From assembly GCA_041671485.1 (NCBI GenBank), contig JBAZBL010000001.1:23037-87036 (forward strand): DNA of 64,000 nucleotides, given 5' to 3'. The translations under genes were made by a program, and so were the position numbers. The notes under the pieces were generated by a model. That model was not told where the DNA came from and made no database searches. It was given only the letters and a program-made list of their open reading frames with translations. Source of the DNA: Minisyncoccota bacterium (GTDB taxonomy: Bacteria; Patescibacteriota; Minisyncoccia; Phycocordibacterales; PALSA-1337). Below are positions 19,197 to 61,843 of this stretch, one piece after another (the stretch's first letter is position 1; every line of letters starts with the position of its first letter).

Positions 19197-22100
19197 ATGA
19201 TACACATGAAAAAGAAGACATACGGAGGTCAGACCTCCGGAGACAAATCAAAAGAATATAGTCCCTCTTTGATTGAAAATAAATGGCAAAGAAAATGGAA
19301 ATCTTCCAAGCTTTTCAAGACAAAAGAAGATACAAAGAAAGATAAATATTATATTCTAGACATGTTCCCATATCCTTCTGGTGAAGGACTTCATGTCGGG
19401 CATCCCAAAGGCTATATAGCGACCGATATAGTATCACGATACAGGAGAATGAGTGGGTACTCGGTTCTGCACCCTATGGGTTTCGATGCTTTCGGACTTC
19501 CTGCAGAGAATTATGCTATCCAGATGAAGACGAACCCAGCTATTGCAGTGTCTCAGAATGTCAAAAGATTCAAGAAGCAACTAGAAATTCTTGGCTTTGA
19601 CTATGATTGGTCTCGAGAAGTGAATACTACAGATCCAAAATACTATAAATGGACGCAATGGATCTTTCTACAACTTTTGAATAAGGGTCTAGCTTATGAA
19701 TCATATGAGCCGATAAACTGGTGTCCTTCTTGCAAAACTGGTTTGGCAAATGAAGATGTCGATGATGGTAGGTGCGAGAGGTGTGGTACTCCTGTAGAGA
19801 AGAAGCCGATGAGACAATGGGTCTTGAAGATCACTGATTATGCAGGAAGGTTGCTTGAGGATTTGGATGTAAAGAATAATGATGATAAACCCTTACTCGA
19901 CTGGCCGGAATCGATCAAAGAGGCTCAAAGGAATTGGATAGGGAGGAGTGAGGGAGCGGAGATAAAATTTCAAATTTCAAATTTCAAAGGTCAAAAATTA
20001 GAAAAGAACATAAAAGTCTTCACCACCCGCCCTGACACCATATTCGGCGTGACTTATTTGGTATTGGCACCAGAGCATAGATTGGTCAAAGAACTTTTGC
20101 CATTGGTTGAAAACAAAAAGGAAGTTGAGGAATATGTTGGTCGTGCCAAGAATGAGACCGAAATAGAGCGCACTGATGCCAAGAAAGAGAAGACCGGCGT
20201 TGAGATGAAGGGTATCAAGGTGATCAACCCCGCAAATAGAGAAGAGATACCTGTTTGGATAGCAGATTATGTTCTTGCCGACTATGGTACAGGCGCCGTC
20301 ATGGCTGTACCCTCACACGATGAGAGAGATTGGGATTTTGCGAAGAAGTTCGACTTACCGATAAAGCAGGTCATTGCACCTTACTTCACAGACAATCCTG
20401 GAAGTAAAGATGCTGTTAGAGATAATAAGAAAACAGTAAAAAGAAAGACTGCATATGCTCTTGTCTTTGACAAAAAAAATGATAAATTTTTATGCTTGAA
20501 TTGGGAAAAATTTGGTTGGCACTCTGGGATCATTGGTGGAGTTGATGATGGTGAAAGTTTCAAAGATGCAGCTTTACGAGAAATAAAAGAAGAAACTGGT
20601 TATAAAAATTTAAATTTGATCAAGAAATTGGGAGGTGAGCAACACAATCATTTCTTTGCTACTCATAAAGATGAAAACCGATATGCAATTGGCCATGGCA
20701 TGCTTTTTGAACTTGTGAATGATGAAAAAGAATTGGTTCTCGAAGAACATAGTTTAAACCATAAACCTGTGTGGATTGATATGGATAAAATGGAAGACTG
20801 GCTCAATTTGTCAGCTTTTAAATATATGTGGAAAGCTTACAAATCTAATTCGGATTGTTTTACTGGATATGGTAGGTTGTTAAATTCTGAGAAATTTGAT
20901 GGGACAGAAAGTAAAGATGTGATGAAAGAGATTACAGATTTTGTCGGTGGTCAGTGGGTCACAAAGTATAAACTCCGAGACTGGGTATTTTCTAGACAAC
21001 GGTATTGGGGCGAGCCGATACCTGTAATACATTGCACAAATTGTTTTGCAAAAGAGAATAAAACAAACGCAATTATTTTGCATGGCTGTCCTTCGAATGT
21101 TGAAAGAGCGATGGATCCTAAAAGACAAACATATGATAAACATTGGATACCATGGACAAAGAAACAATTAGAAATAGCAGGTATTGAGACACTAGTGCCA
21201 TTGATGCCAGAACCATGGCATATGTCATATGAAAAATGGAAGATAGAATTTGATAAATTACCGATAACTGAAAATAGTATTCTAATAGGACATAGTTGTG
21301 GATCTGCTTTTCTGGTTAGATGGTTGGGAGAGACAAAGAAAAAAGTGAGGATGCTTGTCTTGGTTGCACCTTGGAAAATAAATAGTAATAATGATGAATT
21401 TAGAAATAAATTCTATACATACACTATTGACAATGAAATTAAAGACAAAATAAAAAATATCTTTATCTTTACATCAGATGATGAGGAGGATAATGGAAAG
21501 AAAAGTGTCAATATCTTCAGAGAATCTTTGAATGCAAAAGTAATTGAATTAAAAAAACATGGTCATTATATTTACGGTGATATGAAAACAGAAGAATTCC
21601 CTGAATTAATAAATTTGATAAGTTCGTTTTCTTCCAAAGTAGTACCAGTTCCCGAGAAAGACCTACCAATAAAACTACCCAAAGTAAAATCCTATGAACC
21701 CACAGGAACAGGCGAATCGCCACTCGCTAATATAGACAAATGGGTCAATGTAAAGTGTCCAAAGTGCAAAGGTAAAGCCAAAAGAGAGACAAATACAATG
21801 CCACAATGGGCTGGCTCGTCTTGGTATTATTTGCGATATGAAGATCCAAAGAATAAAAAAGCATTCGTTGACACAAAGAAAGACAAATACTGGTCACCAG
21901 TTGACCTCTATGTAGGCGGAGCAGAACATGCCACGCGCCACCTCATATACGCTCGATTCTGGCACAAATTCTTGTACGATATAGGCATAGTCTCAACCAT
22001 CGAACCATTCATCAAACTTCAGAACGTAGGACTCATAATAGGTGAAGATGGAAGGAAGATGTCAAAAAGATTTGGTAATGTTGTCAATCCTGATGAAATT

Positions 22101-22802
22101 GTCGAAATATATGGAGCTGATACACTCCGAATATATGAAATGTTCATGGGTCCATTTGATCAACAGATCGCTTGGAATACGAACAGTATGGTTGGTTCTA
22201 GGAGATTTATCGAAAAAGTTTGGAGACTAAATAATAATCTAAAGACGAATAGAGGATCGACCGTCGCAGGGGCGACAAATGGCGACTTGGCGAAGCCAAC
22301 GAAGGCATTTAGTCGCCCCGAGGAGGGAGATCCGTATTTAATTTTGATTGATAAAACCCTTCACAAAGCAATTAAAAAGGTAACCGAAGACATTCAAGGA
22401 CTAAAATTCAATACTGCATTGAGTACACTTATGATTGCTGTGAATGAAATGGAGTCTTCGGGATCGGTGACTAGAGAACAATTCGAAATATTACTGAAAC
22501 TGCTAGCACCATTTGCTCCTTATGTAACAGAAGAATTGTGGTCTGGACTTGGTAATAAGAAATCGATACATATATCAGAATGGCCAGAGTATGATCCGAG
22601 CCTAATAGTTGATAATGAAGTAAAAATCATTGTTCAAGTGAATGGCAAGGTTCGTGGTTCATTTGACGCTGATCCAGATATAAATGAAGAAGAAATGAAG
22701 AAGAAAGCGCTCAATCTACCTGAAGTGAAAAAGTGGATTGATGGCAATCAAATCAAGAAAGTGATCGTCGTTAAAAGTAAGTTGGTGAGTTTGGTGGTTT
22801 AA
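19197..22802 (+). CDS. leuS: Leucyl-tRNA synthetase with two embedded extra domains (NUDIX hydrolase; alpha/beta serine hydrolase) and one in-frame palindromic element
   Basis: 1201 aa, versus ~800-880 typical. HIGH motif 'PYPSGEGLHVGHPKGY'. KMSKS motif 'KMSKRFGNVV'. 'YKLRDWVFSRQRYWGEPIP'. C-terminal anticodon-binding domain. The NUDIX box is 'GGVDDGESFKDAALREIKEETG'. A GxSxG hydrolase nucleophile 'IGHSCGSAF' lies within the insertion. Confidence 0.9.
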   Translation: MIHMKKKTYGGQTSGDKSKEYSPSLIENKWQRKWKSSKLFKTKEDTKKDKYYILDMFPYPSGEGLHVGHPKGYIATDIVSRYRRMSGYSVLHPMGFDAFGLPAENYAIQMKTNPAIAVSQNVKRFKKQLEILGFDYDWSREVNTTDPKYYKWTQWIFLQLLNKGLAYESYEPINWCPSCKTGLANEDVDDGRCERCGTPVEKKPMRQWVLKITDYAGRLLEDLDVKNNDDKPLLDWPESIKEAQRNWIGRSEGAEIKFQISNFKGQKLEKNIKVFTTRPDTIFGVTYLVLAPEHRLVKELLPLVENKKEVEEYVGRAKNETEIERTDAKKEKTGVEMKGIKVINPANREEIPVWIADYVLADYGTGAVMAVPSHDERDWDFAKKFDLPIKQVIAPYFTDNPGSKDAVRDNKKTVKRKTAYALVFDKKNDKFLCLNWEKFGWHSGIIGGVDDGESFKDAALREIKEETGYKNLNLIKKLGGEQHNHFFATHKDENRYAIGHGMLFELVNDEKELVLEEHSLNHKPVWIDMDKMEDWLNLSAFKYMWKAYKSNSDCFTGYGRLLNSEKFDGTESKDVMKEITDFVGGQWVTKYKLRDWVFSRQRYWGEPIPVIHCTNCFAKENKTNAIILHGCPSNVERAMDPKRQTYDKHWIPWTKKQLEIAGIETLVPLMPEPWHMSYEKWKIEFDKLPITENSILIGHSCGSAFLVRWLGETKKKVRMLVLVAPWKINSNNDEFRNKFYTYTIDNEIKDKIKNIFIFTSDDEEDNGKKSVNIFRESLNAKVIELKKHGHYIYGDMKTEEFPELINLISSFSSKVVPVPEKDLPIKLPKVKSYEPTGTGESPLANIDKWVNVKCPKCKGKAKRETNTMPQWAGSSWYYLRYEDPKNKKAFVDTKKDKYWSPVDLYVGGAEHATRHLIYARFWHKFLYDIGIVSTIEPFIKLQNVGLIIGEDGRKMSKRFGNVVNPDEIVEIYGADTLRIYEMFMGPFDQQIAWNTNSMVGSRRFIEKVWRLNNNLKTNRGSTVAGATNGDLAKPTKAFSRPEEGDPYLILIDKTLHKAIKKVTEDIQGLKFNTALSTLMIAVNEMESSGSVTREQFEILLKLLAPFAPYVTEELWSGLGNKKSIHISEWPEYDPSLIVDNEVKIIVQVNGKVRGSFDADPDINEEEMKKKALNLPEVKKWIDGNQIKKVIVVKSKLVSLVV
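19223..19239. repeat. Palindrome CGGAGGTC-A-GACCTCCG (family also at 49341 and 51121)
   Basis: Perfect 8-bp arms. It lies at codons 9-15 of the leuS ORF. Confidence 0.8.
19965..19985 (+). repeat. Heptanucleotide tandem repeat (AAATTTC)x3 inside leuS
   Basis: AAATTTCAAATTTCAAATTTC. The same heptamer, x4, occurs at the 5' end of the M23 peptidase gene. Confidence 0.85.
22254..22333. mobile_element. GC-rich palindromic miniature element (family A) inserted in-frame in leuS
   Basis: GGATC...CGTCGCAGGGGCGACAAATGGCGACTTGGCGAAGCCAACGAAGGCATTTAGTCGCCCCGAGGAGGG...GATCC. About 93% identical to the infB copy (44490-44576) and the topA copy (40424-40530, reverse complement). It encodes 'STVAGATNGDLAKPTKAFSRPEEGD' within an otherwise AT-rich gene. 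Confidence 0.75.
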
Positions 22803-32554: not shown

Positions 32555-32839
32555 GTGCGAATGTTTGAGGACGATGAACGGAGTATTATGATCCAAAAAC
32601 AAAGATTCATTTTGTCTGTCGCCATGTTGATGGCCCTGGTAGCAGCGCTACTAGTGTTCATCAGCTATCCAAAAGAGGTGGCGCCGGTGATGACTCCGGT
32701 CATCACGAACACGGCTCCTGTAGAGGAGATCGTTGAGACCAACAATGTAGTCACCAATTCCGCGAAAGTGGATGGGGTGATAAACAAAACTGGATCAGTC
32801 TCGGTGACTGGAACAGTTCGTGCAGAGTTCGGGAAGTGA
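32555..32839 (+). CDS. Small membrane-anchored hypothetical protein (GC-rich island)
   Basis: 94 aa. One TM ('FILSVAMLMALVAALLVFI') and a Thr/Val-rich tail. Its GC content is distinctly higher than the surrounding genome. Confidence 0.5.
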   Translation: MRMFEDDERSIMIQKQRFILSVAMLMALVAALLVFISYPKEVAPVMTPVITNTAPVEEIVETNNVVTNSAKVDGVINKTGSVSVTGTVRAEFGK

Positions 32840-32898
32840 AGTGCAGTGCAGAAAACAACAGAAACAAACACAACAAACAGAGAAGAAAGACAACGCAG

Positions 32899-33990
32899 AT
32901 GAAAAAAACACAAATCCTATCGGTAATCTTATCAGTCACACTGCTCGCAGTCGGCGCCTTTGCGCAATCACCTCCAGCTTCTAGCGGTGGTGGTTCGAGC
33001 GGAGGCACGGGGACAATCGTGGTTCCGGCAGATAAAATGCCAACCGCGCTTGCCTTCCTCGGTTCCAAGGCGGCACTACGCGCTTTCGCTCGTGAAAGTG
33101 CAAGGAGCGCGAACTTAAACATCAACTCTGCCGGCATGCAGGGTACATGGGGAACTGGTTCCTCATGGGATTCCCCAAAAAGTCAAGAACAAATCCTTTC
33201 GATAATCAATGCGTGGAGGTTCACCTTCACCATGGAGAATCCAGCGGATTCTGTTCAGGCGACGACGGAAATCAAGAACAGCGACTGGGAGACTCTCTTC
33301 AGCGCGGAGTCTTGGCGGACGCCACAGCTTGTGAGTGGAAGTAGTTACCGATTGCCGGAACTTTACTTCCACTTAACACTGGCGGATATCATCCCATTCA
33401 AGGTTGACAGGTCGGTTCAATGGGGTCAAATCAAGTACCTCAATGACGACGGCAGAACGATCACTACCGTTGACCTTGTTGTCCGGAACGGAAAAGTTTA
33501 TTTCCGATCCGATCTCGCAGGTAAGGGAATTCTCGTCCTGCACAATAACGATGGGAGAACATTCCTGTATAACCTCCGGAATGGTGGAGTACAGGTACCA
33601 GTTGCAAGTGTTCAGTACATGGGGAGTTCCTCGTGGATTGAGAATATGCCATGGTTCAACAACCCAAGCACCATCAATCAGCAGGTCTGGAGCTGGAATG
33701 GTGTTGGCCAAAATCCTACATTCGATGTCAACATGGACTCGAGTGCATGGGTATCGTTCAGGACATATTCCAACGAAGGTGCCGAAGCGATTGGTTTCCA
33801 GGTACGACCACAAGGTGGCACGAACTGGACTTTCTATCCGGTTGTCCTACCTGCCAAGTATGTACCAATCCAACTCACCCCAGGCACCTCGTTTATCATT
33901 CCGGTATGGAATCCGGATGAGTTCAAGGAACCGGAGCCGTACATTCCTGAGAATGGGACGCCGGTGGGTTTCTTCGATGGTAAGGGTTAA
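32899..33990 (+). CDS. Secreted hypothetical protein with signal peptide (GC-rich island); start at ATG 32899
   Basis: 'MKKTQILSVILSVTLLAVGAFAQSP' looks like a signal peptide. It is followed by a Gly/Ser linker and a ~330-aa beta-rich domain rich in W and Y. No family was recognised. Confidence 0.6.
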   Translation: MKKTQILSVILSVTLLAVGAFAQSPPASSGGGSSGGTGTIVVPADKMPTALAFLGSKAALRAFARESARSANLNINSAGMQGTWGTGSSWDSPKSQEQILSIINAWRFTFTMENPADSVQATTEIKNSDWETLFSAESWRTPQLVSGSSYRLPELYFHLTLADIIPFKVDRSVQWGQIKYLNDDGRTITTVDLVVRNGKVYFRSDLAGKGILVLHNNDGRTFLYNLRNGGVQVPVASVQYMGSSSWIENMPWFNNPSTINQQVWSWNGVGQNPTFDVNMDSSAWVSFRTYSNEGAEAIGFQVRPQGGTNWTFYPVVLPAKYVPIQLTPGTSFIIPVWNPDEFKEPEPYIPENGTPVGFFDGKG

Positions 33991-37514: not shown

Positions 37515-37598
37515 ATCCGCATAATACATCACACATAAGAAAATGCAAAAAGATGGCATTGAATGACTGTGTCCACTTTATGGGGTACAGATCAATTG

Positions 37599-37680
37599 TG
37601 CCGGGAGAGAGAATCGAACTCTCATGGATTACTCCGTACGATTTTGAGTCGTATGCGTCTACCAATTCCGCCATCCCGGC
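37599..37680 (-). tRNA. tRNA-Leu (CAA), class II
   Basis: Reverse complement reads GCCGGGATGGCGGAATTGGTAGACGCATACGACTCAAAATCGTACGGAGTAATCCATGAGAGTTCGATTCTCTCTCCCGGCA. Anticodon arm TACGA-[CTCAAAA]-TCGTA, with a long variable arm. Confidence 0.9.
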
Positions 37681-42276: not shown

Positions 42277-42361
42277 GCCGGGGTGGCGAAATTGGTAGAC
42301 GCACTTGGCTTAGGACCAAGCGAAGCAATTCATGGAGGTTCGAGTCCTCTCCCCGGCACCA
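42277..42361 (+). tRNA. tRNA-Leu (TAG), class II, CCA encoded
   Basis: Acceptor GCCGGGG/CCCCGGC with discriminator A plus CCA. Anticodon arm CTTGG-[CTTAGGA]-CCAAG. Long variable arm. Confidence 0.9.
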
Positions 42362-43220: not shown

Positions 43221-43304
43221 GCCCGGGTGGCGAAATTGGTATACGCGCAAGACTTAAAATTTTGTAGCCGTAAGGCTGTGTGGGTTCGATTCCCACCCCG
43301 GGCA
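43221..43304 (+). tRNA. tRNA-Leu (TAA), class II
   Basis: Acceptor GCCCGGG/CCCGGGC with discriminator A. Anticodon arm CAAGA-[CTTAAAA]-TTTTG. Variable hairpin TAGCCGTAAGGCTG. T arm TGGGT-TCGATTC-CCACC. Confidence 0.85.
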
Positions 43305-43486
43305 CACTAAAAAATATATAATGATAGACTTATTTGCCCGGGAGCAAGGTGCATTTGCACCTTGCGAGTGAGAATCGAAAAGTCTGAGCATATTTTCGAA
43401 CCTGAGCGAGCGATCAGCGAGTGGAAGGTGAGAAAATGCGAAGACTATACCGTTCCAGTATGGAAAGATTCCCACCCCGGGCACAC
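43305..43486 (+). mobile_element. tRNA-3'-end-associated miniature element (copy 2), ending in a 20-bp duplicate of the tRNA-Leu(TAA) 3' end
   Basis: The direct repeat GATTCCCACCCCGGGCACAC occurs at 43288-43307 and 43467-43486. The left arm TTTGCCCGGG-[GC hairpin AGCAAGGTGCATTTGCACCTTGC]-GAGTGAGAATCGAA is antisense to the tRNA 3' end. The ~60-nt core at 43378-43438 is shared with the tRNA-Tyr copy. Confidence 0.7.
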
Positions 43487-49725: not shown

Positions 49726-51111
49726 TCAATTGCTATGAATTACTGAACCACTATCTGTATCAATAACATTAAAGCCTTTTCCTTCTATTTCTTTACGGAG
49801 TATATCTGCCTTTGACCAATCTTTATCATTGCGTGCTTTTTCTCTTTCTTTTGAAAGAGTCACTATATCTTCTGGAATATTCTCATCTGAAATAATCTTC
49901 AAAGCTGATCCTAAATTCAAGCCAAGTACACGATCAAAATCAAGTATCGTAGACTTCTTGTCTGCATCAGAATGACTAGGATCTTTGACCAATTCCCAAA
50001 TAAGCGCTATTGCTTGTGGAGTATCCAAATCATTACCTATAAAAGCCTCAAAACGGCCCTTATATTGGGATATAATGCTTCCTTGGCCTCCATACCCAGA
50101 AACAGTAATATTTAGACGTATAAGGGCATTTTGGGCCGATTCTAGGGCTTCAAATGAGAAGTTGATAGGTGAACGATAGTGCGCTGTCAAAAGCCAGTAA
50201 CGATATGCCAGAGGAGGAATCCTTTTATCTAATAATGTACCAACTGTAATAGTATTACCCTTTGACTTCGACATTTTGTCTTCATTCATTATCAAAAATT
50301 CATTGTGCATCCAATAATTGGAAAGTTGAGTATCATATGCCGATTCTGATTGAGCAATTTCATTATTGTGGTGTACTGGAATATGATCGATACCACCAGT
50401 ATGAATATCGAAAGGCTGTCCCAAATATTTTCTAGACATTGCCGAACATTCTATATGCCAACCAGGGAAACCTTTTCCCCAAGGACTGTCCCAACCGATA
50501 TTTGCATCGGATTTCCATAAAAGAAAATCTGTAGGATTTCTCTTTTCCGAATCAGACGCTATACGAGCACCTTCTCTAAGTGATTTGACATCGATATTTC
50601 CAAGCTTGCCATAAGTAGGGAATAGGGAAGTATCAAAACATATTCCACTTGATATTTGATATGCAATACCTTTCTTCATCAAAAGATCTATGATTTCTAT
50701 ATCTTCTTTTATATTCTCACTTGCTTTGGGGAATTCATCTGGCAATTTGATATTCAAAGCCTTTAAATCTTCGACAAATATATCAAAAAATTTTATGCCT
50801 ACTTCTTGCATTGCTTCTATAGTCAGTGGTTTATTCTCTCTTTTGAGTGCTTTCGTCATCTTGTCTTCTCCTTCATCAGCATCACTTGAGAGATGACCAA
50901 CGTCAGTAATATTTATGATTTGATGTACTTTGTAATCGAAATATTCAAATGTCCTCCTCAAAGTATCTGCAAAAATATATGAACGCAAATTGCCTATATG
51001 AGCCCTGTCATAAACAGTTGGTCCACAATTGTACATGCCTACTTGTTTGGGCTTAATGGGCTGGAATACTTCTTTTTCCTTTGAAAGGGTATTGTATAAC
51101 TTTATTTCCAT
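49726..51111 (-). CDS. cysS: Cysteinyl-tRNA synthetase
   Basis: HIGH motif 'GPTVYDRAHIGN'. KMSKS motif 'KMSKSKGN'. Zinc-binding Cys residues are present. Confidence 0.92.
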   Translation of the reverse strand: MEIKLYNTLSKEKEVFQPIKPKQVGMYNCGPTVYDRAHIGNLRSYIFADTLRRTFEYFDYKVHQIINITDVGHLSSDADEGEDKMTKALKRENKPLTIEAMQEVGIKFFDIFVEDLKALNIKLPDEFPKASENIKEDIEIIDLLMKKGIAYQISSGICFDTSLFPTYGKLGNIDVKSLREGARIASDSEKRNPTDFLLWKSDANIGWDSPWGKGFPGWHIECSAMSRKYLGQPFDIHTGGIDHIPVHHNNEIAQSESAYDTQLSNYWMHNEFLIMNEDKMSKSKGNTITVGTLLDKRIPPLAYRYWLLTAHYRSPINFSFEALESAQNALIRLNITVSGYGGQGSIISQYKGRFEAFIGNDLDTPQAIALIWELVKDPSHSDADKKSTILDFDRVLGLNLGSALKIISDENIPEDIVTLSKEREKARNDKDWSKADILRKEIEGKGFNVIDTDSGSVIHSN

Positions 51112-58963: not shown

Positions 58964-60274
58964 TTACAAATAGGAAAGTGGATTGAGATATGCTTTGAAA
59001 TCAGCGAGTGGTATAAGTGCACCTGCACAATTCCTGCTTTGCCCAGCAGTAAGCTTCTGGATCTCTACACCCTCTGTAGCATATACACCAAAGTGTAGAT
59101 GTGGCCCTGTAGTGTATCCTGTATTACCTGTGTAACCAACGATTTGTCCTACTGAAACATCCTGACCTTTTTGTACTGATTGAAGTGATAAATGAGCATA
59201 TAGTGTTGATAAACCATTTACATGTTTGATCATGACCCATTTACCATATGAATAACATCCTCTCACCAAATCTGTATTGCCGACACCTATGACAGTACCT
59301 GATAGAGATGCCTTTATAGGTGTTCCTATAGATGCCCTGAAGTCTATACCATTATGCCCCTTCCCTCCATAAACTTGTGGATTTGCTGTAGCAAAAGATG
59401 TATTGCCGAAATATTGAGTAATAAATACTTTATCGAGTGGCCAAGACAATACACCAGATCCGGTGCTAGGTAATTTTGAAGCATCAACTGCCAGTTTCAA
59501 TTGTGATTCATAAGCTAGTACTTCCCTTTCGAATGCTTCTTTTTGGGCCAACTTTTCAGACATCATCTTTTTGTATTGGGATTCTGATTGTTTTGTTTCC
59601 TTGAGAAGAGTATTTTTCTCTGATTGAGTATCTATTACAACTTGCCTCTGGTCTTTGAGTTGCTTATTCAACCTTATCAATTCATCTTTTGCTTTCTCTG
59701 TCGCTTTTTTATTTGCTTCAAGATTGGATTTCACTAGACGTAGATTCTCGATGCGCTTCAAAAGGCTTCCTTGTATTGAACTTAATTCATCCATAGAATT
59801 CCATGCAGAAAGTAATGAATTGCTACTTAATAAAACCTCTATTAGCGATTGATCTTCTGTTCTCTGTATAAGTGCCAATGAATGAGATATTATCCTTTTA
59901 TCATCTATTATAGTATCTTCTTTATTTATAATTTCCGAAGACAATCCTTGTATTTCATCATTCTTTACCCCTATCTTATTCTCTGTGAGCTGGATATCAG
60001 CCTTCAATTTCTTCTCTGTAAGATCAAGTGATTTGACTGTTGCAGATAATGTATTCACTTCTTTACCTAGATCCTCAATCTCTTTTTGATATCCTAGAAT
60101 CTCTTTCTCAAGATTTTGTATATCTGTATTCCTCTGATCTATTTTTTCCTGCAATTGAGAAGCTGTTTGCGCATTGGAATTTGGTATAGTAAATATGAGT
60201 AAACAAAATAGTGCAAAGAATAAAAATAATACTCCGACATTTGAAATTTGAAATTTGAAATTTGAAATTCTCAC
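58964..60274 (-). CDS. M23 family metallopeptidase with N-terminal coiled coil (EnvC-like); GTG start coupled to gltX stop
   Basis: M23 zinc motifs 'GHNGIDF' (HxxxD) and 'GNTGYTTGPHLHF' (HxH), a long coiled-coil region, and a signal peptide. Confidence 0.88.
   Translation of the reverse strand: MRISNFKFQISNVGVLFLFFALFCLLIFTIPNSNAQTASQLQEKIDQRNTDIQNLEKEILGYQKEIEDLGKEVNTLSATVKSLDLTEKKLKADIQLTENKIGVKNDEIQGLSSEIINKEDTIIDDKRIISHSLALIQRTEDQSLIEVLLSSNSLLSAWNSMDELSSIQGSLLKRIENLRLVKSNLEANKKATEKAKDELIRLNKQLKDQRQVVIDTQSEKNTLLKETKQSESQYKKMMSEKLAQKEAFEREVLAYESQLKLAVDASKLPSTGSGVLSWPLDKVFITQYFGNTSFATANPQVYGGKGHNGIDFRASIGTPIKASLSGTVIGVGNTDLVRGCYSYGKWVMIKHVNGLSTLYAHLSLQSVQKGQDVSVGQIVGYTGNTGYTTGPHLHFGVYATEGVEIQKLTAGQSRNCAGALIPLADFKAYLNPLSYL
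60239..60266. repeat. Heptanucleotide tandem repeat (ATTTGAA)x4 (coding strand AAATTTC x4) at codons 3-12 of the M23 peptidase gene
   Basis: Plus strand ATTTGAAATTTGAAATTTGAAATTTGAA. The repeat unit is not a multiple of 3. Confidence 0.85.
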
Positions 60275-61608
60275 ATCAGTTTACTTATTGCCAGATCTAT
60301 TCTGACCAGTGATTCGTCTTTACCAAGAATATATGCAGAGCTAAATGGATCTGGTGACTTCTCTTGGCCCGTAAGAGCAAATCTAAATGGCCATAAGACG
60401 TCACCTTTGCCATTCCCTTCTGCATATGGCCAGATTGCACTCTTCACTACTTCACTGGTGAAATTATCTTTGGCAATTGTATCTAATAATTTCTTTATCT
60501 CTTTCAAATGATTTGAAGCTATTTCTTTATTTGGATTCTTTTTCCACAAAAGAGAGTCAGCAGTATATTCTCCTAGGTCTTGAATAAAATTCATCTCACT
60601 TCCCTTCTCAAAAATTTTTGCTATATCACCGAAAGAATGTATTTTCTCACGAATGATATGTAATGCTCTGCCAAATAATTCTGGCTTATTGGAGAGCCAT
60701 TTAGGGACAAATTTAGAGCAATGATCTATAAAATCTTCATTGCTCAACTTTGACATATATTGTTTATTGAACCAGTCCAATTTTTCTCTATTGAATACTG
60801 CTCCGGCTTTTTGTACCTTTTCAATATTGAATTTCTCAATCATTTGATCGATACTCAATATCTCTTCATCATTTCCTGGATTCCAGCCGAGTAAGACTAG
60901 AAAATTGAGCAGTGCATCCCTCAAATATCCTTGTTCTTTATAATATTCTACAGAAACTATTTCTCCATGCTTTCTCTTGGATATCTTTTCTCTATTCTCG
61001 GAAAGTATGAGTGGAATATGTGCATATCGAGGTAGTGACACTTCATTTATCGCTTCCCATATGAGTATTTGTCTCGGAGTATTGGATAGATGCTCTTCAC
61101 CACGTATCACATGAGTTATGCCTGAAGTGATATCATCAACGACGTTCGATAGATGGAAAATAGGTTCATCGAGACTTTTGGCAATAACAAAATCACCTAG
61201 TTCTGTAGTATTGAACTTGACTTGACCTTTTATGATATCATCTACCGTAACATCTTTATTTGGATTCTTGAATCTTATAACTTCATTCCTATCTCCTTCT
61301 TTTTTTATTTCTTCTTTGGAAATATATGCTTTTCCAGATGATATGAGTTTTTCTATGTATTTCCTATGAATTGGGAAATTGTCAGATTGTTTGTATGTCA
61401 GATCGAAACCTATACCAAGCCATTTGAATGCATCGGTAATTCCTGTAATATATTCTTCTTTATTCCTCTCTATATCTGTATCTTCTATCCTCAATATGAT
61501 TTGCCCGCCATTTTGCTTTGCAAAAAGATAATTGAACAATGCCGAACGAGCTCCTCCTACATGGAGAAAGCCAGTTGGTGATGGTGCAAAACGGGTAATG
61601 ACTTTCAT
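60271..61608 (-). CDS. gltX: Glutamyl-tRNA synthetase
   Basis: HIGH motif 'PSPTGFLHVGGARSALFNYLFA'. KMSKS-like motif 'KISKRKHG'. Confidence 0.92.
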   Translation of the reverse strand: MKVITRFAPSPTGFLHVGGARSALFNYLFAKQNGGQIILRIEDTDIERNKEEYITGITDAFKWLGIGFDLTYKQSDNFPIHRKYIEKLISSGKAYISKEEIKKEGDRNEVIRFKNPNKDVTVDDIIKGQVKFNTTELGDFVIAKSLDEPIFHLSNVVDDITSGITHVIRGEEHLSNTPRQILIWEAINEVSLPRYAHIPLILSENREKISKRKHGEIVSVEYYKEQGYLRDALLNFLVLLGWNPGNDEEILSIDQMIEKFNIEKVQKAGAVFNREKLDWFNKQYMSKLSNEDFIDHCSKFVPKWLSNKPELFGRALHIIREKIHSFGDIAKIFEKGSEMNFIQDLGEYTADSLLWKKNPNKEIASNHLKEIKKLLDTIAKDNFTSEVVKSAIWPYAEGNGKGDVLWPFRFALTGQEKSPDPFSSAYILGKDESLVRIDLAISKLM

Positions 61609-61843
61609 ATGGGTATTATAGCAAGAAAGTATATGAATTTCTTTATGCTAGAGTTATCAACAACAAGTAAATTTGACTATATATATCCAATTTGTTAGTC
61701 TTTAATTAGAAGTATGCAATAATAACTTACGAGGTGCTCCGATGTTCCCTCAGAATATCTGGGGCTTGAGTTGGAGAACACCACCTTGTGAGACGCTACT
61801 TCTAACAAAGAACCCCTTTCCACTTCGGTCAGGGATTTTTTGT

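Follow-up and report, generated by a model that had tools for sequence, protein, structure and literature searches.

Free-standing trans-editing factors such as AlaX, YbaK/ProX and DTD provide aminoacyl-tRNA synthetases with a second activity in trans, and we know of none among them that is an alpha/beta hydrolase. With regard to domains joined in a single chain, a survey of domain insertions found that aminoacyl-tRNA synthetases are preferred hosts and that the editing domain of leucyl-tRNA synthetase (LeuRS) is a typical inserted module, with zero instances of this editing domain acting as a host itself (Protein Sci 2026, PMC13114784). Here, we analysed a leuS gene located in a stretch of 64,000 nt from a Minisyncoccota bacterium (contig JBAZBL010000001.1; the whole stretch is referred to as the window), which encodes a bacterial-type LeuRS with two nested enzyme domains, a NUDIX hydrolase within the editing domain and an alpha/beta serine hydrolase within a Cys4 knuckle. 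A description of a LeuRS with this pair of domains was not found in the full-text literature that we searched for the architecture, and public sequences of LeuRS with these inserts are labelled merely leucine--tRNA ligase, although the synthetases are among the best-studied enzymes.

A synthetase with two nested enzyme domains

Judged by its sequence, the host is probably a working bacterial-type LeuRS of a Paceibacterota bacterium, a member of the candidate phyla radiation (CPR). The first-pass annotation of the window had read the gene as a ~1200-aa LeuRS into which a NUDIX domain and a serine hydrolase are embedded, and this reading holds: the open reading frame (ORF) specifies 1201 aa (Table 1), and the whole protein scores 997.7 bits against the NCBIfam family TIGR00396 (leuS_bact), well over the cut-off of 548.4, and matches the Thermus thermophilus LeuRS 1h3n with an E-value of 1e-200 (phmmer). 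Its LeuRS matches in Pfam comprise the editing domain (PF13603, 217.8 bits, with aa 245–399 covering profile positions 1–146 of 185), PF00133, PF09334 and PF08264 (aa 1053–1163). The connective peptide 1 (CP1) editing domain is present with its threonine-rich region and conserved Asp (TTRPDT, HDERD), and these motifs, together with HVGH, KMSKR and the residues of the ZN1 knuckle, are invariant or nearly so across 63 relatives. Strictly invariant in these relatives are H63, G65, H66, K951, M952 and K954 in the numbering of P0001, a 100% identical NCBI protein titled 'MAG: leucine--tRNA ligase [Candidatus Paceibacterota bacterium]' (MAG, metagenome-assembled genome). The P0001 sequence is present on two contigs, and its layout is common to dozens of homologues from other metagenomes. 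An AlphaFold2 (AF2) model of P0001, built from a 63-sequence alignment, has a mean predicted local distance difference test (pLDDT) score of 84.7 and a predicted template modelling score (pTM) of 0.75, and the full model matches E. coli LeuRS–tRNA complexes with a target-normalized template modelling (TM) score of 0.82 (Foldseek).

Table 1. Features of leuS and of the remaining window (nucleotide positions count from the first letter of the window; residues are those of the LeuRS product unless a protein length is given)
Feature	Window position (nt)	Strand	Residues or length (aa)	Basis or remark
leuS, bacterial-type LeuRS with two nested enzyme domains	19197–22802	+	length 1201	single ORF, 1201 aa plus stop
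LeuRS N-terminal part: first half of Rossmann fold, ZN1 knuckle, first ~146 profile positions of CP1	19197–20375	+	1–393	Pfam, motifs
HIGH motif, HVGH	19392–19403	+	66–69	
ZN1 knuckle motifs, CPSC and CERC			176–179, 193–196	
Editing-site motifs, TTRPDT and HDERD			276–281, 374–378	
Nested NUDIX hydrolase domain	20376–20858	+	394–554	PF00293, borders versus insert-less relatives
Nudix box, GGVDDGESFKDAALREIKEETGY	20535–20603		447–469	
LeuRS middle segment: end of CP1, return to catalytic core, first CxxC (C613/C616)	20859–21044	+	555–616	aligns to T. thermophilus 380–442
Nested YdeN/RBBP9-type alpha/beta serine hydrolase	21045–21638	+	617–814	PF06821, borders versus insert-less relatives
Predicted nucleophile S700 in GHSCG	21294–21296		700	
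Predicted catalytic H790	21564–21566		790	
Predicted acidic residue, D761/D762/E763			761–763	
LeuRS C-terminal part: second CxxC, KMSKS, anticodon-binding domain, C-terminal domain	21639–22802	+	815–1201	aligns to T. thermophilus 444–579 and 638–876
Second CxxC, C854 and C857	21756–21767	+	854–857	
KMSKS motif, KMSKR	22056–22070	+	954–958	
GC-rich ORF	32836–33990	+	length 384	GC 0.50, GC at third codon positions (GC3) 0.55; window GC 0.38
tRNA-Leu (CAA)	37598–37680	-		long variable arm
tRNA-Leu (TAG)	42277–42361	+		long variable arm
tRNA-Leu (TAA)	43221–43305	+		long variable arm
Cysteinyl-tRNA synthetase (CysRS)	49726–51111	-	length 461	ordinary/small size, nested domains absent
Glutamyl-tRNA synthetase (GluRS)	60271–61608	-	length 445	ordinary/small size, nested domains absent
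DUF3800-V RNA	61708–61803	+		Rfam, 82.6 bits (gathering score 37.4)

Aligned with T. thermophilus 1h3n, the query forms four blocks, with residues 19–394, 558–616, 815–949 and 955–1201 facing 2–363, 380–442, 444–579 and 638–876, respectively, and the breaks in this alignment coincide with both inserts. We set the insert borders by alignment with four insert-less relatives of ~845 aa (P0099, P0103, P0116 and P0117). The NUDIX insert (aa 394–554) sits between PIKQVI and FTGYGRLLNSEKFDG, and the hydrolase insert (aa 617–814) between HCTNC and VVPVPEKDLP, so that both insertion points are cleanly delimited. Excised in silico, the two inserts leave a LeuRS of 842 aa, in which PF13603 becomes contiguous from position 1 to 183 of 185 and PF00133 forms one stretch. 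The stretches by which the first-pass annotation had marked the architecture, namely SHDERDWDFAKKFDLPIKQVIAPYF, VVPVPEKDLPIKLP, PIPVIHCTNC (with C613 and C616), IGHSCGSAF (with S700) and CPKCKG (with C854 and C857), are all found in the ORF. Both inserts are confidently folded in the full AF2 model, where most of their 10-residue blocks have a mean pLDDT above 85 and a few hydrolase blocks one of 69–83; the extra length is thus not low-complexity sequence.

The NUDIX insert scores 43.3 bits against PF00293 (aa 416–532; cut-off 21.1), and its intact Nudix box, GGVDDGESFKDAALREIKEETGY, satisfies the strict regular expression for GX5EX7REUXEEXGU. The domain had been placed beyond the editing-domain segment, and in this respect the earlier description has to be amended: the insertion point lies inside CP1, at about position 146 of 185 in the profile. 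Across 84 NUDIX copies at the same site (site C, see below), the catalytic positions of the box are kept almost without exception (E7 98%, R15 98%, E16 100%, E19 98%, E20 100%), and these domains are mutually only ~31% identical. Modelled alone, the domain reaches a pLDDT of 93.4, and the model has 422 matches in the Protein Data Bank at E ≤ 1e-3, the 50 listed ones being NUDIX proteins throughout; the best structural matches listed include hydrolases of diadenosine tetraphosphate (Ap4A), diadenosine hexaphosphate (Ap6A) and diadenosine polyphosphates, as well as MutT1. The subgroup of diadenosine-polyphosphate (ApnA) hydrolases is reportedly marked by a Tyr some 16–18 residues past the Nudix box, a rule credited to Dunn et al. 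in 1999; residues 485–487 of the query are H, F and F, and many relatives have Y or F at the aligned positions. From the box and the fold, the NUDIX insert is probably an active enzyme.

The second insert scores 35.2 bits against PF06821, Ser_hydrolase (aa 646–805; cut-off 22), and phmmer searches with it retrieve Bacillus subtilis YdeN (1uxo, E 1.9e-9) and human RBBP9 (E 1.5e-7). It directly follows the first CxxC (C613, C616) and splits the second Cys4 knuckle, whose cysteines C613/C616 and C854/C857 align with T. thermophilus C439/C442 and C484/C487 and, by this alignment, would bind zinc. The leucine-specific domain (T. thermophilus 577–634) is absent here, with query residues 949 to 955 spanning T. 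thermophilus 579 to 638; it is a variable element of the LeuRS family and is not needed by the family profile. Accordingly, of the leucyl-specific/zinc region to which the hydrolase had been assigned, the domain itself and the zinc knuckle stand, but the leucine-specific part does not. Across 126 embedded and free-standing copies of this hydrolase, S700 and H790 are conserved in all 126, while the candidate catalytic acids are E763 (125/126), D761 (113/126) and D762 (106/126). In a pairwise alignment, E734 lies opposite Glu108 of RBBP9, the acidic residue that anchors the free alpha-amine of the substrate (PMC8866121); E734 is present in 68 and the neighbouring D733 in 115 of the 126 copies. 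This insert, too, is probably an active enzyme as far as its residues tell.

The inserts lack intein boundaries, as had been stated at the outset: no intein or Hint family was found by Pfam, and the junction residues (A394...Y558|G559 and F617...K814|V815) are without the Cys/Ser/Thr and His-Asn signatures. Flanking repeats resembling target sites do not exceed chance, the only one having an exact core of 11 nt (20402 and 20909). The intein or mobile-element reading was therefore rejected. A foreign origin is not supported by the composition either, since the GC3 of the inserts (0.25–0.26) is typical of the genome (mean 0.30, standard deviation 0.07); if anything, it is the LeuRS core that is the outlier (0.34–0.43). 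A second copy of either domain was not found in the window by tblastn. Apart from the two inserts, the anticodon-binding domain contains an extra loop (window 22248–22325, aa ~1018–1043) that is predicted to be disordered (pLDDT <50 at P0001 residues 1015–1040) and varies in length among relatives.

Inserts in related synthetases and their free-standing counterparts

The same insert families recur in the LeuRS of related genomes. When the query was aligned with the 120 best database clusters, a sample biased to its own relatives (the named ones are all Patescibacteria/Paceibacterota), six insertion sites and 21 insert combinations emerged, and only 5 of the 120 clusters were insert-free. At site C, that of the query's NUDIX, 97 clusters carry a NUDIX domain; the architecture, which had been called unusual, is so in comparison with textbook LeuRS, but not within its own lineage. 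Site A, before CP1 at ~aa 230, is occupied in 65 clusters (46 single, 19 double) by one or two further NUDIX domains, or by Ham1 in P0080, which brings the count to 1–3 NUDIX domains per relative when the copies at sites A and C are taken together. The second of the tandem site-A copies is degenerate, the E of the box being Q in 66% and the R being A in 55%. Site B, inside CP1 at ~aa 265 (26 clusters), mostly holds a second Ser_hydrolase subfamily, with Ham1 in P0111 and the query-type hydrolase in P0052. Site D, in the zinc knuckle (11 clusters), receives a Ser_hydrolase of the query type or of another subfamily, or domains without a Pfam match; site E, at ~aa 857–860 (10 clusters), a HAD phosphatase; and site F, at ~aa 881–900 (1 cluster), a domain without a Pfam match. 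The inserts that match nothing in Pfam measure ~78–200 aa and were seen at site D in P0073/P0089 and P0090, and at site F in P0111. The inserts diverge faster than the LeuRS core. Because the neighbour-joining tree of the core is star-like, insert gains and losses cannot be counted reliably. The LeuRS family represents a case of natural combinatorial domain insertion that marks permissive sites, which is of use to protein engineering.

When the NUDIX domain was compared exhaustively by phmmer with 1.84 billion representatives, only 447 clusters matched at E ≤ 1e-3, which makes this a narrow subfamily. LeuRS core sequence is also present in 100 of the best 149 clusters of this subfamily, and the remainder of these 149 includes ~30 free-standing proteins of 143–207 aa. 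Free copies are 40–54% identical to embedded copies of both NUDIX sites. The subfamily is further nested in a class II prolyl-tRNA synthetase (ProRS), between the anticodon-binding and C-terminal domains (P0269, L090:2762–4693), and occurs in P0387, a 1318-aa protein of the leucyl-aminopeptidase family Peptidase_M17 that has two GNAT domains besides. Of four free-standing NUDIX genes that we inspected, P0273 is separated by 1 nt from a 951-aa LeuRS downstream of it, with the same YchF...LeuRS-sigma synteny as in the window; P0279 lies two genes upstream of a ProRS with its own nested NUDIX, in a tight same-strand cluster; P0259 starts 4 nt past Fpg/MutM; and P0290 adjoins another NUDIX gene.

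The hydrolase insert shares 60–66% identity, along >90% of its length, with free-standing proteins of ~190 aa from Patescibacteria and DPANN archaea, and this end-to-end identity indicates that a whole gene was captured. It is equally similar to two-domain proteins of ~326 aa, among them P0216 and P0141 (L004:6001–6984), which are free of LeuRS and combine an N-terminal query-type hydrolase with a C-terminal NUDIX of a different subfamily; here, the two kinds of enzyme have been fused independently. When the hydrolase domain was used in a word-indexed protein search, P0001 and other LeuRS-embedded copies were missed, so that this type of search under-reports embedded copies. A genome scan restricted to a single genome for each species yielded 80 loci, 78 of which contain a query-type copy at 54–64% identity. 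Their record titles assign them to many Patescibacteria and to DPANN archaea (Woesearchaeota, Pacearchaeota, Nanoarchaeota, Micrarchaeaceae), and the archaeal labels are supported by archaeal tRNA-intron endonuclease genes that adjoin some of the hydrolase loci.

In five of the loci, LeuRS contains the hydrolase as an insert, at site D (L006, L007), site B (L032) or site C (L042, L078). In four others, it is a separate gene that overlaps a bacterial-type LeuRS or lies ~1 nt from it (L024, L026, L040, L056), and in two it lies upstream of an archaeal-type LeuRS (TIGR00395, 845 and 798 bits), at ~140 nt in L037 and ~500 nt in L053. One further copy begins 16 nt past the end of an isoleucyl-tRNA synthetase (IleRS) gene in L074. 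Unbiased clustering of neighbouring ORFs identified LeuRS as the most recurrent neighbour, all other families occurring in ≤4 loci each. On our own rough estimate, LeuRS would be an immediate neighbour by chance at ~0.2% of loci in a genome of ~1000 genes, or ~0.15 of 74 loci, against six observed. Fusion or operon linkage of these enzyme families to LeuRS, IleRS and ProRS was hence observed repeatedly.

In a tree of the hydrolase, the embedded copies share long branches with three of the adjacent ones, and L024, L037, L053 and L074 sit within a slowly evolving cluster of free-standing proteins. LeuRS- or IleRS-adjacent hydrolases accordingly occupy at least four distinct positions in the tree, which suggests at least four independent associations.

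Several further observations concern these loci. The IleRS of L074 (76–2979, + strand), from a Candidatus Yanofskybacteria MAG, itself holds a nested histidine-phosphatase of the dPGM/ribazole-phosphatase-like type (aa 269–438), so that the nesting of enzymes is not a peculiarity of LeuRS. A bacterial-type LeuRS is found on several DPANN contigs, in L056 with a NUDIX insert, and the ~190-aa hydrolase is common to Patescibacteria and DPANN archaea at ~60% identity (e.g. L040:2998–3576); together, these findings suggest that the two ultra-small groups have exchanged genes. In L078, a Woesearchaeota contig, an in-frame stop (1804–1806) interrupts the LeuRS frame with the site-C hydrolase, and may stem from a sequencing error, mark a pseudogene or be recoded.

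Possible roles of the nested enzymes

With both inserts active, one polypeptide would hold up to four catalytic sites, for synthesis, editing, NUDIX hydrolysis and serine hydrolysis. From the conserved catalytic residues and the recurrent links to synthetases, we infer that the two domains are active and that their association with synthetases has a functional meaning, and we lean, if only slightly, towards accessory hydrolases that are active and tied to the chemistry of the synthetase, and away from random passengers.

As to particular substrates, any proposal is speculative. The roles put forward in the first-pass annotation, Ap4A-type nucleotide turnover and deacylation or ester hydrolysis, are conjectural, with indirect backing from the fusions and gene neighbourhoods that connect both families with synthetase genes. 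LeuRS is a class I and ProRS a class II enzyme, and because all that they share is ATP and aminoacyl-adenylate chemistry, dinucleoside polyphosphates are our first guess for the NUDIX domain; the guess also draws on the ApnA hydrolases among its structural neighbours and on Ap3-5N, which synthetases form from the adenylate (PMC7705103). The domain would then dispose of nucleotide by-products, for example dinucleoside polyphosphates of the Ap4A type that arise from aminoacyl-adenylate and ATP. Alternatively, it would act on damaged nucleoside triphosphates in a MutT-like sanitation of the nucleotide pool, a role backed by the Fpg neighbour of P0259. For the serine hydrolase, a guide is its relative RBBP9, an aminopeptidase that removes N-terminal amino acids and requires a free alpha-amine (PMC8866121), and which is reported to activate valacyclovir, an L-valyl ester drug (Shenoy 2020, as cited in PMC7730578). 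For these reasons, our best guess is an alpha-aminoacyl ester, thioester or amide, whose cleavage by the insert would free the amino acid; speculative candidates include aminoacyl esters made in error, homocysteine thiolactone that arises in editing, and leucine derived from peptides. The mildly acidic nature of the free-standing hydrolases (median isoelectric point 6.1) favours small-molecule substrates over tRNA.

It is conceivable, although we regard it as doubtful, that the YdeN/RBBP9-like hydrolase is a dedicated partner of LeuRS and IleRS in CPR bacteria and DPANN archaea, with a part in proofreading or by-product detoxification, and that the synthetases of these ultra-small organisms serve as platforms for the recurrent grafting of metabolite-repair enzymes; the insert families that we saw on synthetases are NUDIX, HAD, Ham1 and histidine-phosphatase. 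Fusion at three sites and operon linkage to both types of LeuRS are classic evidence for a functional partnership, and the partnership of hydrolase and LeuRS is the part of our results most likely to be new biology. It would offer a functional hypothesis for a highly conserved hydrolase family of CPR and DPANN and, if true, constitute a new layer of translation quality control or by-product clearance.

A number of observations weigh against a coupling of the inserts to synthetase chemistry. A synthetase within 3 kb is missing at 67 of the 80 hydrolase loci, and the contexts of two free-standing hydrolase genes had no conserved operon. The long branches of the LeuRS-associated hydrolases may reflect either a single clade or long-branch attraction, which makes the number of events uncertain, and the isoelectric point given above argues against direct binding to tRNA by the free hydrolases alone. 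All curated NUDIX families of NCBIfam score far below their cut-offs for the first insert, and no curated family fitting the second was found there; substrates of NUDIX and alpha/beta hydrolases cannot be read from sequence. Finally, the HAD and Ham1 inserts of relatives are generic house-cleaning families, and the coupling of P0259 to Fpg/MutM fits a general, MutT-like sanitation of the pool.

Some of these points are also what would be expected if the inserts were passengers, i.e. ordinary house-cleaning enzymes lodged in permissive loops of a gene that is essential and constitutively expressed, retained only for the free co-expression that this gives in a tiny genome, and working independently of LeuRS. 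We consider this rather unlikely, yet it is the strongest competitor. Besides the solitary hydrolase genes, the Fpg-coupled NUDIX and the HAD and Ham1/ITPase inserts, it would account for the combinatorial architectures in the 120 clusters, the genome-typical GC3 of the inserts and the presence of the same NUDIX subfamily in a Peptidase_M17 protein. Passengers would not, however, be expected to meet the same host by such diverse routes: the hydrolase is tied to LeuRS at three insertion sites and by upstream as well as downstream adjacency, with bacterial-type and archaeal-type enzymes alike, where chance would give ~0.2% per flanking pair, and LeuRS tops the list of its recurrent neighbours. 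In addition, two of the four inspected free NUDIX genes stand beside synthetases, whereas the CysRS and GluRS of the same window are insert-free.

Another explanation, which strikes us as improbable, is protection from toxins, with the hydrolases destroying mimics of the aminoacyl-adenylate or nucleotide-type inhibitors of LeuRS at their target. Cleavage of pyrophosphates and of aminoacyl esters or amides could both hit aminoacyl-nucleotide analogues, and the NCBIfam entry NF040702, an IleRS with an N-acetyltransferase, illustrates a class I synthetase with a detoxification-type domain. Moreover, the patchy, fast-changing distribution of inserts and the faster evolution of the LeuRS-associated copies resemble those of conflict-driven genes. 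The free hydrolase, on the other hand, is nearly ubiquitous, at 55–64% identity across Patescibacteria and DPANN, which resembles core metabolism, and no toxin or immunity genes were seen near leuS.

Still less probable, to the point where we give it very little weight, is a recruitment of the inserts as catalytically silent bulk, for instance for the binding of tRNA or a partner. The degenerate second NUDIX copy in the tandem pairs of some relatives and the faster evolution of the inserts than of the LeuRS core would fit with this, but the Nudix box of the query is perfect, and its hydrolase has lost none of the residues that are invariant in the 126 embedded and free copies and is still 55–66% identical to free-standing enzymes. 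That the inserts are inteins, other excised elements or products of a chimeric assembly hardly merits belief, for although both adjoin strongly conserved motifs of an essential protein, a frequent location of inteins, the Pfam, junction and repeat results described above oppose it, as does the presence of an identical protein on two contigs and of the layout in many independent metagenomes.

Genomic setting and comparison with described systems

The neighbourhood of leuS is one of ordinary housekeeping genes, encoding G6PD, a restriction-modification pair, a DEAD helicase, YchF, a sigma factor, YceG, MnmA, ClpB and alanine racemase. Along with the three tRNA-Leu genes, the window contains five other tRNA genes, and its IF-2 is short (533 aa). 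The product of the GC-rich ORF has a signal-peptide-like N-terminus and no match in Pfam, and may be a horizontally acquired surface protein.

Compared with the LeuRS of T. thermophilus (1H3N/2BYT) and E. coli (4AQ7/4ARC), the query has the same order of domains and the same motifs, from the Rossmann fold, ZN1 and CP1 in its bacterial position to the anticodon-binding and C-terminal domains, but it differs in having 359 aa of nested enzymes and a disordered loop in the anticodon-binding domain, and in being without the leucine-specific domain. The NUDIX insert shares its fold with the single-domain Ap4A/Ap6A hydrolases of Aquifex (3I7U) and T. thermophilus (Ndx1, 1VC8), at target-normalized TM scores of up to 0.81, and with MutT1 of Mycobacterium smegmatis and Rv2985 of M. 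tuberculosis, proteins of ~290 residues for which the corresponding score is ~0.37 and the query-normalized one 0.63–0.66. A complete Nudix box is common to all of them, whereas sequence identity does not exceed 22%, and only the query domain is nested in a synthetase. Similarly, B. subtilis YdeN (1UXO) and human RBBP9 (2QS9, 7OEX) belong to the same PF06821 family as the second insert and have the GxSxG nucleophile and the catalytic His in common with it. They are distant from it in sequence, however, and the query subfamily possesses invariant motifs of its own (HGCP, GHSCG and APWK) and occurs in CPR and DPANN, nested in LeuRS or adjoining it.

The principle of a synthetase joined to a second activity is shared with the IleRS–N-acetyltransferase of NF040702, although folds and insertion sites differ. 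In relation to the published survey of domain insertions, the CP1 domain described here hosts a NUDIX domain at site C, and that of relatives hosts a hydrolase or Ham1 at site B as well, which makes this family an exception to the generalization that the LeuRS editing domain never serves as a host (PMC13114784).

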